From an uncultured Verrucomicrobiae bacterium (GTDB taxonomy: Bacteria > Verrucomicrobiota > Verrucomicrobiia > Chthoniobacterales > Xiphinematobacteraceae): DNA of 64,000 nucleotides. Within the stretch, counting starts at the first letter, position 1, and each line of letters opens with the position of its first letter. The stretch spans positions 192,001 to 256,000 of the forward strand of contig CAVPNI010000002.1 of the NCBI GenBank assembly GCA_963706715.1. Reading direction: 5' to 3'. The position numbers and the translations under genes are program-made. Positions 1 through 4,862 of the stretch are shown one piece after another. The notes below the pieces were generated by a model, which searched no databases, had not been told where the DNA came from, and saw nothing but the letters and a program-made list of their open reading frames with translations.

Positions 1-1
1 T

Positions 2-892
2 TTTGTGATCGCCACGCGTTTCCTCTTCGACGCCTCGTACGATTTCTCGTATGTCGGGAACGACGCCATCGACGGCTTTGCCGAGCGCTTTAACGGATCG
101 GATTGGGAGTCGGTGGTCACCACGCTGGTCCAATATCGGGCAGTTCTCGAGGACACGTCGCAATACGTCGCCTTACACACCTCGCCGATGTCTTCAGCTG
201 TCTGCGCGATCGCGCAGAGCCGCGTCGTGCGTGGCCTGATTCTGCGTTGCCTGCGCGGTGGTTTCGACCGCTGCTGGGCGCTGATTGAGAGGTGCTCGCA
301 CTGGCTGGACGGGTGCGCTGAAGACGATGGCCGCTGGCTCGATCGTTATGAATATCTCCGGCAGCTCAGCCTCTTCCTGGCGGCAAGGTGGCCGCGAGAG
401 GCGCTTGCGGGACTCGTCCGGCAAGACGTCTTTCATGCCGGTCATGACCTGATCGCTGCCTGCCTGTTTAAGCGCTCGGACTTGGCGGATGAACTGCAGC
501 AAGTCGTGGCTGCAGGGGGCTCGGCGCTGTCTGGAGTGCCAGCGCTGATCGTGCGGCACACCCCAAAAATTGCTGTGGCAGGCTGTGGCGTGGTGCCCTT
601 GGCCGTGCAACTGGCCGACACCGGCGTTCGGTTCCGGCGCGCAAAACACTTTCTCGTCGCTCAATTCGCTGATCGCATCGATCCGGCTGTGTTGGAGTGT
701 CTGCTTCGGGGCATGGACACGATACCGTGGGGACACACCGCCGCCACGGAGCAGGCCATCCAGGCACAGATATCGACGCGTGGGTCTGCCTACCGATTTG
801 AGCTGGAGCGAGGCATTGACTGGACGACGCTGGACTCTTGGTCAATGATTACGCAGGAACGTCCCGACCCGTTGGCGTCGCTCGAATATTGA
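2..892 (+). CDS. Hypothetical protein, 5'-partial, within GC-rich aminoglycoside-like cluster
   Basis: Frame open from window start to TGA at 892; GC-rich like its neighbours; no motif recognised. Confidence 0.6.
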   Translation, partial: FVIATRFLFDASYDFSYVGNDAIDGFAERFNGSDWESVVTTLVQYRAVLEDTSQYVALHTSPMSSAVCAIAQSRVVRGLILRCLRGGFDRCWALIERCSHWLDGCAEDDGRWLDRYEYLRQLSLFLAARWPREALAGLVRQDVFHAGHDLIAACLFKRSDLADELQQVVAAGGSALSGVPALIVRHTPKIAVAGCGVVPLAVQLADTGVRFRRAKHFLVAQFADRIDPAVLECLLRGMDTIPWGHTAATEQAIQAQISTRGSAYRFELERGIDWTTLDSWSMITQERPDPLASLEY

Positions 893-1112
893 GTCACGGT
901 GCAAATGAGCGGAAACGGCAAACGATCTGATTTGCAGTGCTTTAATTTTAATGGTAGATTTGGCATTGATCGGCGTGGTGGGTGAACTGGATGCTGGCTG
1001 TCGCGCCTACGCAGGCGGTTCGTTGCAAGGCACAGATCAATTAACGGATGGGAAGGCGAAACTTCAACTCTTTGCTCCTCCATGCAACAACGCTAAAGAA
1101 CGACCCAGCAGC

Positions 1113-2467
1113 ATGACCTCTTCATTTGCGCCATTCGTTGAGCACCACGCTCTTGGTACCTCACACATGCACGGACTTCGATCGGGAATCCTGCTCGAGG
1201 ATACTTTCGACGTGATCGTCATTGGCAGCGGCGCCAGTGGTGCCGTTGCTGCGGAAACCTTCGTTCGGGCCGGGCTTCGCACGCTGTTGTTGGAAGAGGG
1301 TGCCAGGCTCAAGGCCAGTGCAGAGAACGCAGCCGTCGATGCGGACGCCGTGCACGCATTGGCCGGCAATGACGCGCAGGGATGGAGCTCGCGGGGATGG
1401 CCATGGAGCACGCGCAATCTCGGCGGCGGAACCGTTTTCTATGGTGGTGCATCGTTCCGATACACCGAATTCGACTTCGATCCCAGCGAGCGCATTTGTG
1501 TCGACGGCCTGCCGGTTGAAATGGCCCATCAGTGCCGCCGATCTCACTCCCTTTTACCAGGAGATGGAGTCAAGTCTTTCCATCGATTATTCGGGATTCA
1601 TGGGCGCACGACAGGCACCCAAATCTTTGAGTCTCCCCGCGGAACATCTCTGGGAAGGTGCGCTCCATCCGGGGGCACCGCTTCGTCCTGGCCTGCAATG
1701 CGATTCAGACGGCTGCATTGCTGCTGCGCTCAGTCACACCCTATGCGCCAAGTGGCCTTGGCAATGAGCATGAACTCGTCGGTCGCGGGCTTTGCATGAA
1801 GCTGAGCGAATATTCGCAGGGCATTATGAAGGCAGACCGGCAACAAATCGACGCTCACCCAATTGGTTATCGTGGGCCGTTCTCGACGGTGTGCGTGCTT
1901 GATCATTATCTGGATGAACGCTGTCCGACCGGTGTCGGCGGACTAATCTACGAAGCTAAGCACGACGACTGGTGCCATTTGCAGGTCGACGGTCTGGTGT
2001 TACGTGTCGAAACTATTCTTGCGGATCATCCGTCTCTTGGAAATCGGATCCGTCTTTCCAGTAGCACGGACCCTTGGGGCTTGCCGCAGATTATGATCGA
2101 CTACACGACGGACCCACGGGATCTGGCGCGCCTGGCTTATATGGTGGAACGTTCAGCCGACTGGTTGAAGGCCGCTGGCGCACACGATATTCAACACGAA
2201 GCCTCGAACTTTGCCATGGGCAGCACCCATCTGCATGGCACCTGCCGCGCGGGCGAAGATCCGCGGACCTCGGTGGTGGATCGGGATGGTAAGCTTCATT
2301 CGCTAGATAACGTCTACGTCGTGGACGGTAGCTACATGCCTTACCCCGGCGGATTAAATCCCACCCTTACGATCCAGGCCAATGCCCTGAGAATTGCTCG
2401 CCGGATCGCTGACGATGCAACGGGTCATGCAACCGCCTTGCGAGCACTGTACCCCTCTGCTACCTGA
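1113..2467 (+). pseudogene. GMC/FAD oxidoreductase, paromamine 6'-oxidase-like (NeoQ/KanQ/LivQ type), disrupted
   Basis: VIGSGASG FAD motif, GWPWSTRNLGGGTVFYGGASFRY, CNAIQTAALLLRS, GRGLCMKLSEY, STHLHGTCRAG and NPTLTIQANA are spread over three frames; extra base near 1516-1518; out-of-frame deletion junction near 1657-1663. Confidence 0.85.
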
Positions 2468-2493
2468 AGATCATTCTCAAAGCGACCACTGTC

Positions 2494-2875: not shown

Positions 2876-4111
2876 ATGAAAATCCTGAAGCTGACACCCT
2901 TTTTCCATCATCCAGACGTCGAATCATGGCCAATTTCTTACGATGCGGTCGGCGGCATGCAGGTACAGACCTGGCGACAGGCGGTCTGGCTCGCGGAAGC
3001 AGGCATCCATCAACATGTGATGACAATTGGCTTCCCTGGGCTGCCTAAGCTACGTCAGTTGCATCCGTTTCTGTGGGTAGAGCGGATGATGGTACCCATG
3101 CCCCGGATCCGCTCCGAGTTCAGCGGCCTGGTCGGCCTGACCCAGTCGTGGGCCATAGCAACACTGTGTGCGCTTCTTCAACGAGCGCGCAAGCAAGACT
3201 TCGATGTCATCCATGCGCACCTCGATGGGCAAATTCCCGCGCTGCTGGTTGCTTGGCTTGCTCCTCGACTACTGCGGCGCCCATTGATTCTGACGGTACA
3301 CTGCTCCCGTCTCGCAGTCTATACCCCACACTCCTGGCTCGATATGCTTCAACACCAGATAGCCCGGTGGCTGGAACGGCGAGTCATCAGCGTGGCCTTC
3401 GCGGTCATGGCCTTAACCCAACGAACCGCCACGGTGCTCGCGCAGAATGCCCGGCTCGTCGAGATCGTTCCCGATGTAGTCGATACCACACAGTTCACGC
3501 CGCCGCCACTTCAGGTAGTGGCGGCGTTCCGCGAGCGCCATGGCCTTCGGAGACAAACGGTGGGCTTTGTGGGCCGGATCGCGAAAGAAAAGGGATGGCC
3601 GCATCTCATCCCTCTCGCCGTGGCCCTTCGCGAGGAAGGGTGCGAGTTGCTGATCGTCGGAGATGGAACGCAACGAGATCGTTTACGGGACGCCATCGCC
3701 AAGGCGGAACTGCAGGACTGGGTGACGGTTACAGGCTTCATCCCCAATCATGAGGTGCCGCTTGCGATGGCGGCCTGCCGGCTGATCGTGATGCCGTCGA
3801 TGTATGAGGAATTCGGGGGTAGCAGTATCGAGGCGTTGGCCACCGGCGTGCCGGTAGTGGCCTTTGCCGTTGGTGGTCTTCAGGAAATTCTGGGCGGAGT
3901 CACTCCCGATCTACTGATCGCACCGGAAGATACGCCCGCAATGATCGCACGGGTCAAGGAGGTGCTGACCGGCCACCATGCAGAGAGGACCGATCCGACT
4001 CGGCTGCGGGTCTATGTCGAGCAGCGCTATACCCCATCCGCGATGGGTTCTCGGACCCTGGAGCTTTACCGGTTGGCACAAACCAACTCAACGAAGCCTG
4101 CCAAGTCATGA
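2876..4111 (+). CDS. GT4 glycosyltransferase, 2-deoxystreptamine (N-acetyl)glucosaminyl/glucosyltransferase-like (NeoD/KanM1/BtrM type)
   Basis: MKILKLTPFFHH..SWP..YDAVGGMQVQ, GFPGLP, RSEFSGLVGL, HLDGQ, HCSRL; GT-B C-terminal FVGRIAKEKG and YEEFGGSSIEA. Confidence 0.85.
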   Translation: MKILKLTPFFHHPDVESWPISYDAVGGMQVQTWRQAVWLAEAGIHQHVMTIGFPGLPKLRQLHPFLWVERMMVPMPRIRSEFSGLVGLTQSWAIATLCALLQRARKQDFDVIHAHLDGQIPALLVAWLAPRLLRRPLILTVHCSRLAVYTPHSWLDMLQHQIARWLERRVISVAFAVMALTQRTATVLAQNARLVEIVPDVVDTTQFTPPPLQVVAAFRERHGLRRQTVGFVGRIAKEKGWPHLIPLAVALREEGCELLIVGDGTQRDRLRDAIAKAELQDWVTVTGFIPNHEVPLAMAACRLIVMPSMYEEFGGSSIEALATGVPVVAFAVGGLQEILGGVTPDLLIAPEDTPAMIARVKEVLTGHHAERTDPTRLRVYVEQRYTPSAMGSRTLELYRLAQTNSTKPAKS

Positions 4112-4139
4112 TCACCGGGTCGCCCCGGTTGCACAGCGT

Positions 4140-4303
4140 TATAGCAAAGCCCGTATAAAATGATTACGCCTTTGCCGCCCTTTTGCCTCCAAGCTTTGTT
4201 GCAAAAAATAGTCCGTATCTACAGATATGGCCTCTTTTTTGCGTCTTGCCTGGAGCCAAAATTTCAGTCAAATCCATGATCATTTTATACGGGCCTTGCT
4301 ATA
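4140..4303. mobile_element. MITE copy A (~160 bp, TA-flanked, IS630/Tc1-type ends)
   Basis: TATAGCAAAGCCCGTATAAAATGAT (4140-4164) and ATCATTTTATACGGGCCTTGCTATA (4279-4303) are 25-bp inverted repeats with 1 mismatch; central hairpin CCGTATCT-AC-AGATATGG; homologue at 18590-18985. Confidence 0.85.
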
Positions 4304-4415
4304 GCAACGGGACGGCCATCAAAATTCGGATCGTCAGGGCAATCGCGTTTGCGCTTTAACAATTTGCGAACTAAATTAGCTTACGTATCTGATATTACGC
4401 AGCCGATTTCCCACC

Positions 4416-4862
4416 ATGCCACTGATTCATCTTGCCAACACCGTTTCTACATCAGAAGTGGAGCACTGCCTGCGCGAGCACGGCTACGCCATCATCGACA
4501 AGCTCGTGTCCAGCGCTTCCATGGATCGCATCGCCGACGAGCTTGAGTCCTACACGGCGGTCACGCCCTTCGGGCCAGACGGTATTCTCGGCAGACGAAC
4601 CAAACGCACCGGAGGCTTGATTGCCCGATCGCCGGGTGCGTGCGAACTGATCCTCAACCCAACCATTCTAGAGACAACCCGGCGCTACCTGATGGGCTAT
4701 CAGTGCGGCGCGTTTGCCTTGGGCTACGTCAACGGATTTGAGGATCCGATGACGGTGCTAGGACGGGGTCAACCCGGCAAACTCATGGGCGCTGAGTTGA
4801 TGCTGAAGGCTGAGCAAAACGAGGATCGGAAGTCCTTCTTACGGGAAGCTGAATTTGATTGA
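4416..4862 (+). pseudogene. Phytanoyl-CoA dioxygenase (PhyH) family Fe/2OG enzyme with in-frame internal deletion
   Basis: N-terminal LREHGYAII..GRRTKRTGGLIARS joins directly to C-terminal LMGY..ALGYV..DP near 4690; the HxD catalytic core is absent. Confidence 0.7.

Follow-up and report, generated by a model that had tools for sequence, protein, structure and literature searches.

Gene clusters of the 2-deoxystreptamine (2-DOS) pathway are represented by those for neomycin, paromomycin, lividomycin, ribostamycin, and butirosin in Streptomyces and Bacillus. In the scheme reportedly set out by Kudo and Eguchi in 2009, the pathway proceeds from DOI synthase via NeoS/BtrS, NeoD(=NeoM)/BtrM, the deacetylase, and NeoQ/LivQ/ParQ to NeoB. 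A proteobacterial counterpart, an 'Aminoglycoside-like BGC' with a predicted product, has been described in silico in Pseudomonas sp. Ps639 (Pacheco-Moreno et al., 2021, eLife; PMC8719888). The accessible parts of that paper list genes for a DOI synthase, a NeoL-like phosphoribosyltransferase, a neamine aminotransferase, a deacetylase, a Gln:scyllo-inosose aminotransferase, a ParQ-like oxidase, a 2-DOS GlcNAc-transferase, and a 2OG/Fe(II) oxygenase, with identities to par/neo genes of 44–56%. The name NeoD is used for the deacetylase in those parts of PMC8719888 and for the glycosyltransferase (GT) in UniProt.

The locus considered here lies at the left end of a 64,000-nucleotide stretch of an uncultured Verrucomicrobiae genome (hereinafter the window). 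It belongs to a GC-rich island of 9.9 kb (C2:186981–196860; C2 being the contig that holds the window), which we regard as quite probably the remains of a Burkholderiales-type 2-DOS aminoglycoside-like cluster that was acquired horizontally, truncated by an IS element, and partly pseudogenised, with an exporter that is likely in use. The GC content is 0.586 for the whole island as against 0.471–0.476 for the four contigs of the genome, and within the window it is 0.54–0.60 across positions 1–5000 and 0.40–0.53 for most of the sequence. The preliminary description, made from the window alone, held that the block is more GC-rich than the backbone, runs off the left edge, and was probably acquired horizontally; all three points are borne out by the composition (0.59 vs. 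0.47 for the genome), by the left end of the block at C2:186981, 5.0 kb beyond the left edge of the window, and by a DNA identity of 85–88% to a Rugamonas locus over almost the whole length of the island (blastn against 31 related loci, of which those of Pseudomonas and Trinickia show 72–83%). On the right, homology to the Rugamonas cluster ends at window position 4868 (blastn), and the first backbone gene codes for a protein of the phosphodiesterase/nucleotide pyrophosphatase family (4879..6840, minus strand; Pfam Phosphodiest, 4.9e-25; GC 0.476, GC3 0.436). The RecN encoded on the backbone shares 77% identity with a protein from a Verrucomicrobia MAG and about 50% with those of Terrimicrobium, Spartobacteria, and Chthoniobacter.

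The same cluster was also found in Pseudomonas, Trinickia, Xenorhabdus, and Photorhabdus, and is complete in Rugamonas. In these relatives the cluster codes for a DHQS-like cyclitol synthase, two aminotransferases (one of class III, AT3, and one of the DegT type), a PIG-L deacetylase, a GMC oxidase and a PhyH dioxygenase, a GT4 glycosyltransferase, a NeoL-like protein of 667 aa and a dikinase-like one of 1244 aa, DUF6137, and an ABC exporter. The earlier view of such clusters as recorded chiefly in Actinomycetota and Bacillus therefore needs amending, the direct relatives of the island being proteobacterial, with one in Pseudomonas described in silico (PMC8719888, as far as the accessible parts go).

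The intact GT4 gene (2876..4111, plus strand) codes for 411 aa from the ATG at 2876 or 414 aa from an upstream TTG at 2867, with Pfam matches to Glycos_transf_1 (6e-29) and Glyco_transf_4 (4e-16). All motif strings quoted in the preliminary description are present in the ORF translations where it had placed them, including 'LTPFFHH..SWP..DAVGGMQVQ' in this ORF (2867/2876–4111), and the EX7E motif EEFGGSSIE (E314, E315, E322) is invariant across the alignment. The protein is 88% identical to its Rugamonas ortholog, with 51–88% across the proteobacterial clade, and its next relatives are the actinomycete 2-DOS GlcNAc-transferases (40–48% identity, 278–364 bits), including proteins of S. fradiae, Streptoalloteichus tenebrarius, and Micromonospora inyonensis, as against at most 127 bits for the remaining GT4 proteins. 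In a FastTree phylogeny of 51 of 120 listed rows, picked by the analyst, it groups with its Rugamonas and Trinickia counterparts (SH-like support 96 and 93). The proteobacterial clade in which all three fall is the sister of the actinomycete 2-DOS GlcNAc-transferase clade, so that the GT stands outside the latter; the two clades are jointly split from generic GT4 enzymes with support 99. MshA and BshA, which transfer GlcNAc onto inositol phosphate or malate, share its GT-B/GT4 architecture and are the nearest solved structures (5d00, 62.8 bits; 7qsg, 47.9 bits; 3c48, 44 bits), no solved GT4 structure exceeding 67 bits; the corresponding NCBIfam scores (BshA 83.5 bits, MshA 72.2 bits) are far under both the cut-offs (274 and 462) and its scores to the 2-DOS GTs. 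These relationships support assigning the GT, with a predicted transfer of GlcNAc from UDP-GlcNAc to 2-DOS, to the 2-DOS GlcNAc-transferase type rather than to any other GT4 subfamily, in keeping with the NeoD/KanM1-like assignment originally made for it.

Upstream of the GT lies a GMC oxidoreductase pseudogene of the paromamine 6'-oxidase type (1113..2467, plus strand), which is spread over three reading frames. The motif 'GWPWSTRNLGGGTVFYGGASFRY' sits in ORF 951–1799 and 'GRGLCMKLSEY' in ORF 1658–2467, i.e., in different frames of one broken gene, which the preliminary description had overlooked. When aligned with its counterparts in Rugamonas and P. brassicacearum, the gene has a single extra base near 1516 and lacks 254 nt between 1658 and 1659, a loss of about 85 codons. 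Consistent with this, tblastn recovers the oxidase as three pieces in three frames, 86–87% identical to the Rugamonas ortholog, and Pfam recognizes GMC_oxred_C (1e-27) and, of the FAD-binding fold, the first ~40 residues; no single open frame of this gene holds a complete N-terminal FAD domain together with the C-terminal domain. Soil contigs 90–95% identical to the oxidase lack the extra base and contain the deleted stretch. The extra base could be an assembly error; the 254-nt deletion by itself breaks the frame. Tested via the Rugamonas ortholog, the nearest named relatives are aminoglycoside 6'-oxidases (52–55% identity to the S. paromomycinus ParQ protein, LivQ [LIVQ_STRLV], and the S. 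alboniger 'paromamine 6'-oxidase'), which agrees with the initial NeoQ/KanQ-like identification, and the edge of this clade is blurrier than that of the GT because scores drop gradually toward other GMC enzymes. The adjoining DUF6137 gene (2494..2742, plus strand; 82 aa; PF19634, 1.2e-33) is intact and encodes a protein 84% identical to the Rugamonas copy; DUF6137, a conserved downstream partner of the oxidase, adjoins the GMC gene in 20 loci, and it is fused to GMC_oxred_N in one homolog.

The last ORF of the block (4416..4862, plus strand; 148 aa), the nature of which was likewise missed at first, is a PhyH-family dioxygenase remnant with an in-frame internal deletion of 447 nt. Relative to five intact 296-aa orthologs, residues 92–239 are gone, and with them the conserved HQD and the distal histidine ('VYHGG'), and tblastn matches are confined to residues 1–92 and 240–296; judged from its sequence, the protein is a dioxygenase without its iron-binding core. 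The lesion junctions of the island were read from the assembly, and that of PhyH is, alone among them, also spanned by one 151-nt soil contig with 100% identity. Between the GT and this remnant lies a 164-bp host MITE (4140..4303) with 35-nt terminal inverted repeats, whose ends equal those of the IS630 copies in the genome and which has no counterpart at the corresponding site in Rugamonas or Pseudomonas. Beyond the window, an IS630 copy bounds the island and abuts a DegT aminotransferase stub, cut to residues ~260–360 of 428, in which everything upstream of ~260 has been replaced by the IS630 copy; the loss of 275 nt at the DegT end is a further lesion.

These elements bear on whether a proteobacterial contig was misjoined into, or contaminates, the verrucomicrobial genome, as a composition so sharply unlike the backbone and the high identity to Burkholderiales DNA might suggest. 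We consider this exceedingly unlikely: the backbone flanks the island on both sides within a 691-kb contig, each of the four contigs carries copies identical to the MITE (137 matches in the genome, 28 being near full length and ≥90% identical), the bounding IS630 is 99% identical to other copies, and a diverged second exporter copy resides on another contig (C3), all of which attest to integration in the host genome. Moreover, the lesions are unique to the island copy, with one junction recurring exactly in the soil contig, and the contamination estimate is 1.08%.

The remainder of the pathway was sought by tblastn, with 20 proteins of the cluster as queries and the four contigs as the database. 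No DOI synthase was detected in them, the sole DHQS-family match (36.5% identical) being a true aroB, which scores 366 bits on the aroB profile (cut-off 305) as against 244 bits, under the cut-off, for the P. brassicacearum cluster enzyme. Neither the PIG-L deacetylase nor the 667-aa NeoL-like phosphoribosyltransferase has a tblastn match in the four contigs, and for the class III 6'-aminotransferase they contain only generic transaminases of 23–27% identity elsewhere. The genes cut off by the IS630 copy are those for the cyclitol synthase, the phosphoribosyltransferase, the deacetylase, and the 6'-aminotransferase, along with the greater part of DegT. The minimal neamine set is lacking: besides the synthase, it calls for a DegT-type aminotransferase, a PIG-L deacetylase, and a 6'-aminotransferase of class III, all intact. 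The preliminary description envisaged an aminoglycoside cluster continuing upstream, and named generic GT4/GMC affinities plus the lack of an upstream cyclitol synthase as grounds for abandoning this: the latter was indeed found, an IS630 copy standing in its place, while the family assignment of GT and oxidase holds. Derivation of the genes from a 2-DOS-type cluster is supported; the presence here of a complete or working one is not, and three of the enzymes that are left are pseudogenes. A working paromamine/neamine-type cluster in a verrucomicrobium is suggested by the placement of GT and oxidase in the right enzyme clades and by the leftward extension of the block; given that upstream there are only the exporter, the dikinase-like gene, the 108-aa DegT stub, and IS elements, that DOI synthase, deacetylase, and 6'-aminotransferase are absent from the genome, and that oxidase and dioxygenase are broken, we accord it hardly any probability. 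With its core enzymes missing or broken, the cluster would not make an antibiotic or aminocyclitol product, and we hold with high confidence that the island is a non-producing remnant.

The window opens with the C-terminal 296 residues of the 1244-aa dikinase-like protein (2..892, plus strand; a single open frame), whose whole gene (C2:189158–192892) starts 2842 bases to the left. Its frame is unbroken and it shows 82% identity over 1235 residues to a 1270-aa Rugamonas ortholog. No Pfam match was obtained with the protein itself; its family profile matches the PEP synthase 9dae (3.6e-9), and PPDK_N (PF01326) is matched by 13 of 29 family members. All 16 PDB matches of residues 1–430 in Foldseek at E≤0.001 are PEP synthases, PPDKs, or rifampin phosphotransferases, at low TM-scores to the dikinases (0.16–0.38). 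The ATP-grasp motif R-S-x-G-x-E-D of the His-relay dikinases is also invariant here (R90, S91, G93, E95, D96) and is followed by 'GS..EHAGIMFRQ', which aligns with the dikinase phosphohistidine loop 'GG.TSHAAIV.RE' at just 4–9 bits; H358, invariant in 29–32 sequences, aligns with the His of the PEP synthase TSHAAI at weak domain scores (4.4 and 9.4 bits), and PF00391 is matched by one of 29 family members, at 0.0029. Sequence and model thus show the protein to be dikinase-like, of the PEP synthase/rifampin phosphotransferase type, with a PPDK_N-type ATP-grasp domain. Where dikinases have the PEP/pyruvate barrel or the rifampin-binding domain, it has a mostly helical 814-residue region, confidently modeled (pLDDT 89), for which no clear structural match was found.

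The intact ABC exporter is the component that likely remains in use, as a pump serving efflux or protection. Its second full-length copy (C3:732236–734126) is 94% identical, the two being 617 and 621 aa long with a dN/dS of 0.29 at a dS of 0.135, and keeps upstream sequence gone from the C2 copy. On C3, just the exporter and 105 nt of DegT are left of the cluster, and in a same-genus genome the first 484 nt of the exporter occur at a contig end (89% identity). Its best NCBIfam matches are MsbA-like, well under the cut-off (340 vs. 602 bits). All five internal lesions of the island (the MITE insertion, the extra base, and three deletions, of 275 nt at the DegT end, 254 nt, and 447 nt) fall outside its four intact genes, viz., exporter, dikinase-like protein, DUF6137, and GT. 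These genes (7.1 kb of open frames) account for roughly two thirds of the stretch in its ancestral form; the chance of this (~0.34^4 to 0.34^5, i.e., 0.005–0.013) is post hoc arithmetic and only suggestive. Retention of the exporter by selection is a tentative proposal that we rate somewhat short of even, and the equation of intact with selected is weakened by the GT and DUF6137, which are intact and lack an obvious use without 2-DOS.

Less likely than not, though by no means negligible, is the reading of the island as pure genomic debris, whose four open frames, like the second exporter copy, have simply not yet been hit. In its favor, the IS630 and MITE matches (27 and 137) occur throughout the genome, other genes are also split (e.g., a backbone GT4 at window 11815–13006), and the GT is without a substrate source; further, dN/dS relative to Rugamonas is 0.06–0.25 in broken and intact genes alike, which implies that the breaks are recent and that the intact genes may merely await lesions. 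It accounts less readily for two constrained full-length exporter copies, for the stripping of C3 down to the exporter, for the lesion-free 7.1 kb, and for the exporter start in the same-genus relative. We favor a decaying cluster with an exporter still in use, and propose that a soil betaproteobacterium might have been the donor, that IS activity and short-repeat deletions would have trimmed the cluster, and that the exporter, perhaps along with the dikinase-like protein, may have been retained as protection against an aminoglycoside-like product of neighboring producers. As a whole, the island is an ordinary decaying remnant of horizontal transfer.

Among the proteobacterial relatives, 13 loci, from Pseudomonas, Trinickia, and Burkholderiaceae, combine DOIS, the 667-aa protein, AT3, PIG-L, DegT, ABC, GMC, DUF6137, GT, and PhyH; a dehydrogenase of the NeoE/BtrN type did not turn up in the proteobacterial loci examined. 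As listed in the accessible parts of PMC8719888, the gene set of the Ps639 cluster equals that of these 13 loci, and its par/neo identities (44–56%) agree too; from this gene content we infer that they form one family. The exporter, DUF6137, and the 1244-aa protein of the loci studied here go unmentioned for Ps639 in those parts of the paper. In comparison with the Streptomyces and Bacillus clusters, the proteobacterial sister clade is distinguished by an additional conserved 1244-aa dikinase-like protein, DUF6137, and PhyH; in comparison with the Ps639 cluster, the window has the distal half alone, with three of its enzymes broken.

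The GC-rich block at the left edge of the window is an acquired island of 9,880 bases, which starts at C2:186981 on the contig carrying the window (C2:192001-256000), 5.0 kb left of the edge, and ends at window 4862-4868. Its GC content is 0.586 versus 0.471-0.476 in the four contigs of the 3.04-Mb source genome; correspondingly, the first 5 kb of the window have values of 0.54-0.60 as against approximately 0.40-0.53 across most of it, and the third-position GC of the island genes is 0.67-0.77 versus 0.44-0.54 for four backbone genes. Over almost its whole length the island shows 85-88% DNA identity to a locus from Rugamonas, and 72-83% to loci from Pseudomonas and Trinickia. 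The preliminary description had held the block to be richer in GC than the backbone, probably horizontally acquired, and continuing past the left edge, and it was right on all three counts. The RecN encoded in the backbone at window 10145-11818 shares 77% identity with a protein designated 'MAG: Verrucomicrobia bacterium' and 49-50% with those of Terrimicrobium sacchariphilum, Spartobacteria bacterium LR76, and Chthoniobacter flavus; these relatives being verrucomicrobial, the earlier label of a probable verrucomicrobial host stands. Compared with the value of 0.655 in Rugamonas, the island GC might suggest amelioration towards the host, but soil relatives nearer to the island deviate the other way, and this reading was not adopted. 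In the empty-site comparison with two same-genus genomes (G001 and G002), the flanking genes accC and DUF2851 lie on separate contigs, and the insertion site is not definable there.

Mobile DNA is abundant in this genome, with 27 matches to an 885-bp IS630 element and 137 to a 164-bp MITE (window 4140-4303), whose 35-nt terminal inverted repeats are identical to the ends of the IS630 element. Related MITEs (~76% identity) occur in two same-genus genomes. The genomes G003 and G004, placed in the same genus, each consist of one contig of ~0.9 Mb with 99% completeness, and this strong reduction relative to the 3.0-Mb IS-rich genome fits widespread gene decay in the lineage. Elsewhere in the window, a backbone GT4 glycosyltransferase occupies two overlapping frames on the + strand (11815-12621, N-terminal half; 12326-13006, C-terminal half), a split due to either a genuine frameshift or an assembly error of one base. 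The ORF at 6898-7542 (- strand) matches the RhuM family profile at its first 69 of 252 positions only and so is probably a fragment. Two giant open frames (34051-42771, - strand, 2906 aa; 49883-55129, + strand, 1748 aa) match nothing in Pfam at 1e-5, and a 586-aa protein (31983-33743, + strand) combines a low-molecular-weight phosphotyrosine phosphatase domain with a serine hydroxymethyltransferase.

All island genes lie on the + strand. The leftmost is a DegT/DnrJ/EryC1 aminotransferase stub of 108 aa, corresponding to Pfam positions 221-320 of 360, that directly adjoins an 885-bp IS630 copy (C2:186104-186988; 1104-1988 of the fetched locus L004), itself adjoining the fragment of another transposase. 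Thereafter come a 617-aa ABC exporter, the gene for a 1244-aa protein ending at window 892, a GMC oxidase with the Pfam GMC oxidoreductase C-terminal domain, an 82-aa DUF6137 protein (window 2494-2742; Pfam 1.2e-33), a family 4 glycosyltransferase (GT; ORF at window 2867/2876-4111), the MITE, and, as the last gene, a 148-aa ORF that is the remnant of a PhyH dioxygenase. The sequence strings quoted earlier are all present in the window: the GT N-terminus in the GT ORF, and the oxidase strings 'GWPWSTRNLGGGTVFYGGASFRY' and 'GRGLCMKLSEY' in the ORFs at 951-1799 and 1658-2467, respectively.

A homology search with the GT recovered 320 proteins at E<=0.001, the best 120 of which fall into three score ranges. 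Ranks 2-59 are 51-88% identical, and every named one is from Pseudomonadota (Rugamonas 88%, Trinickia 82%, Pseudomonas 78-80%, Mitsuaria 68%, Sphingomonas 58%, Xenorhabdus/Photorhabdus 56-57%). A second group (40-48% identity, 278-364 bits), whose named members are actinomycete, includes proteins from S. fradiae, Streptoalloteichus tenebrarius, and Micromonospora inyonensis, several being named 2-deoxystreptamine N-acetyl-D-glucosaminyltransferase; beyond both groups, scores drop to <=127 bits. No solved structure exceeds 67 bits, the best being GlgM, BshA, and MshA. In a FastTree phylogeny of 51 of these 120 proteins, chosen by us from the three groups (21, 18, and 12), the window protein clusters with its Rugamonas and Trinickia homologues. 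The proteobacterial clade around them (support 93) and the actinomycete clade are sisters (support 96), and the two together are split from generic GT4 proteins (support 99). The Rugamonas orthologue, with which the oxidase pieces share 86-87% identity, in turn shows 52-55% identity to a S. paromomycinus protein, LIVQ_STRLV (annotated as 6'''-hydroxyparomomycin C oxidase), and a S. alboniger 'paromamine 6'-oxidase'. The resemblance pointed out earlier to the 2-deoxystreptamine (2-DOS) GT and 6'-oxidase families is therefore correct. The indicated donors are proteobacterial rather than actinomycete.

Relative to the Rugamonas, Pseudomonas, and Trinickia loci, the window copy bears six lesions. 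The DegT gene is cut at residue ~260 by the IS630 element, and ~275 nt are gone from its 3' end and the following spacer, with the join at a short shared sequence. The oxidase has gained one base near window 1516 and lost 254 nt between 1658 and 1659, a stretch whose Rugamonas counterpart is flanked by the repeat AAGGTGCGC; it now lies in three reading frames, the deletion by itself being sufficient to break the frame. The MITE is inserted between the GT and dioxygenase genes, and the latter has lost 447 nt in frame at about window 4691, corresponding to residues 92-239 with the conserved HQD motif and the distal histidine. Soil and rhizosphere contigs from three sequencing runs (X1, X3, and X4) are 90-95% identical to this stretch; those of X1 and X3 are without the extra base at 1516, those of X1 and X4 retain oxidase and dioxygenase parts deleted here, and in the X1 contig the large protein, oxidase, and DUF6137 follow one another as they do here. 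From a fourth run (X2) come a few short contigs (151 nt) that match the window exactly, and the dioxygenase junction falls within one of them. No run contained more than 0.10 of the sampled words, and no RNA run is listed as containing the stretch.

The 2-DOS pathway proceeds from glucose 6-phosphate via 2-deoxystreptamine and paromamine to neamine. A tblastn search with 20 cluster proteins against all four contigs revealed no further copies of four of them (synthase, deacetylase, 6'-aminotransferase, and 667-aa protein). The sole DHQS-family match in the genome, considered as a candidate cyclitol synthase, was rejected as a true aroB (366 bits against a profile cut-off of 305; the cluster's synthase scores 244). 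Given the established order of steps, the route to 2-deoxystreptamine, paromamine, and neamine would thus be unable to run in this genome. Where a cyclitol synthase, aminotransferase, and deacetylase had been anticipated upstream, there are instead the IS630-cut DegT stub, the exporter, and the 1244-aa gene, the synthase and deacetylase being absent genome-wide by tblastn. The original interpretation holds for the enzyme families and the horizontal origin, but neither a working cluster nor a cyclitol synthase is present.

Judged against their Rugamonas orthologues, four of the island's genes have kept their full length: those for the exporter, the large protein, DUF6137, and the GT. A second intact exporter (621 aa, 94% DNA identity to the first) lies on another contig (C3:732236-734126; 8219-10084 of locus L036, - strand) between IS fragments (IS4-like transposase) and a cyanase gene of high GC content (L036 10410-10880). 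Since 105 nt of the DegT end and the original spacer upstream, both lost from the C2 copy, are still attached to it, this second exporter does not derive from the present C2 form; the two copies have a dS of 0.135 and a dN/dS of 0.29. When 40 genomes from the same order were compared with the island, matches outside the MITE (matched in G001 and G002) and an ABC ATPase stretch came from G002 (73% complete) alone, in which the initial 484 nt of the exporter lie at the end of a contig. The 89% identity of this segment to the source genome, versus 83% for accC and 74% for DUF2851, hints that the G002 exporter was gained later or separately rather than vertically. A further sample of 400 genomes from the phylum contains no match to the exporter at E<=1e-150. 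Comparison with Rugamonas gives dN/dS values of 0.06-0.25 for all island genes, broken or intact; the breaks are therefore young relative to the Rugamonas divergence, and this ratio would not separate selected genes from lucky survivors.

The 1244-aa protein (C2:189158-192892) belongs to a rare family, with 71 representatives at E<=0.001 among 1.84 billion, 39 of them at <=1e-30. Residues R90, S91, G93, E95, D96, A103, G104, and H358 are invariant in a 29-member alignment. The family profile matches PEP synthase 9dae at 3.6e-9 in the ATP-grasp domain, its 'GS..EHAGIMFRQ' stretch aligning weakly with the phosphohistidine loop, and weaker matches include Listeria rifampin phosphotransferase entries. 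Pfam PPDK_N is matched by 13 of the 29 members; the window's own protein has no Pfam match, three pieces searched at E up to 10 yielding nothing useful, and an atlas search gives PPDK_N 0.88 as a lead only. The modelled residues 1-430 (pLDDT 89.9) have 16 PDB matches at E<=0.001, all to PEP synthase, PPDK, or rifampin phosphotransferase, with low TM-scores. Residues 431-1244 (814 residues) are confidently modelled (pLDDT 89.2) as mostly helical with one small α/β domain; searched as one region, they retrieve nothing from the PDB at E<=0.001 with Foldseek, and only generic helical bundles among 48,161 chains with VIA-align (best Z 8.3), which by itself would not make the fold a new one. The gene is present in 10 loci, including Xenorhabdus/Photorhabdus at ~30% identity, and adjoins cluster genes in all 8 with enough of the cluster in the fetched stretch. 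We read the protein as a predicted dikinase-type phosphotransferase with a putative substrate domain, which might act in either product tailoring or producer protection. A bolder proposal, which we regard as rather unlikely, is that it is a new aminoglycoside-modifying His-relay dikinase that would phosphorylate the cluster product, as rifampin phosphotransferase does rifampin, and would form with the ABC exporter the producer's self-resistance module; a non-producing soil verrucomicrobium would have kept exactly that module, with the exporter doubled and the biosynthetic genes decaying, as a shield against aminoglycoside-making neighbours.

As a decaying fragment, the locus alone is not expected to give a new antibiotic. 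It does show that DNA of an antibiotic cluster passed recently from Burkholderiales-type bacteria to Verrucomicrobiota, and exemplifies the paring away of acquired DNA in an IS-rich genome, with the exporter surviving as two copies. It is also a caution for genome mining, as markers of the right clade (GT and oxidase) would flag an aminoglycoside cluster despite the lost pathway. Attention is also drawn to the intact cluster family of Pseudomonas, Trinickia, Rugamonas, Roseateles, Xenorhabdus, and Photorhabdus, with its conserved dikinase-like protein, for whose confidently modelled C-terminal region no PDB match was found. A scan with one genome per species recovered 31 loci, 27 of them proteobacterial with the GT at 51-88% identity. 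Thirteen (L006-L016, L023, and L029; Pseudomonas, Trinickia, and Burkholderiaceae) have the full set: DHQS-like cyclitol synthase, 667-aa protein, class III aminotransferase, PIG-L deacetylase, DegT aminotransferase, ABC exporter, oxidase, DUF6137, GT, and a PhyH dioxygenase of 296 aa. These genes recur in a different order in the Rugamonas locus, along with a 1270-aa orthologue of the 1244-aa protein, and the Xenorhabdus/Photorhabdus loci have the synthase, 667-aa protein, class III aminotransferase, PIG-L, GT, oxidase, and a 30%-identical large protein. DUF6137, which was not found in the latter loci, is without exception preceded by the GMC oxidase in the clusters of Burkholderiales and Pseudomonas, and a metagenomic protein (P0281) has it joined to GMC_oxred_N. 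It may serve the oxidase as an accessory subunit; an atlas search gives, as a lead only, a PP-binding share of 11%, and a literature search returned 0 papers mentioning the family.

In the literature searched, we found no identification of the product of the intact proteobacterial cluster. Literature searches returned nothing relevant on proteobacterial neamine or ribostamycin clusters or on Verrucomicrobia with 2-deoxy-scyllo-inosose, and the main text of the Xenorhabdus/Photorhabdus survey (Shi et al., 2022) does not contain 'aminoglycoside', 'amglyccycl', or 'aminocyclitol'. An 'aminoglycoside-like BGC' has been described in silico in Pseudomonas Ps639 (eLife 2021, PMC8719888), and in that paper the counterpart of the 667-aa type is named a NeoL-like phosphoribosyltransferase, a name whose only Pfam support in the 667-aa protein is a Pribosyltran hint (E 0.044). 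In gene content, the proteobacterial cluster matches the Ps639 cluster gene for gene (PMC8719888), and the verrucomicrobial locus represents a decayed version of a type of cluster that the literature already describes.
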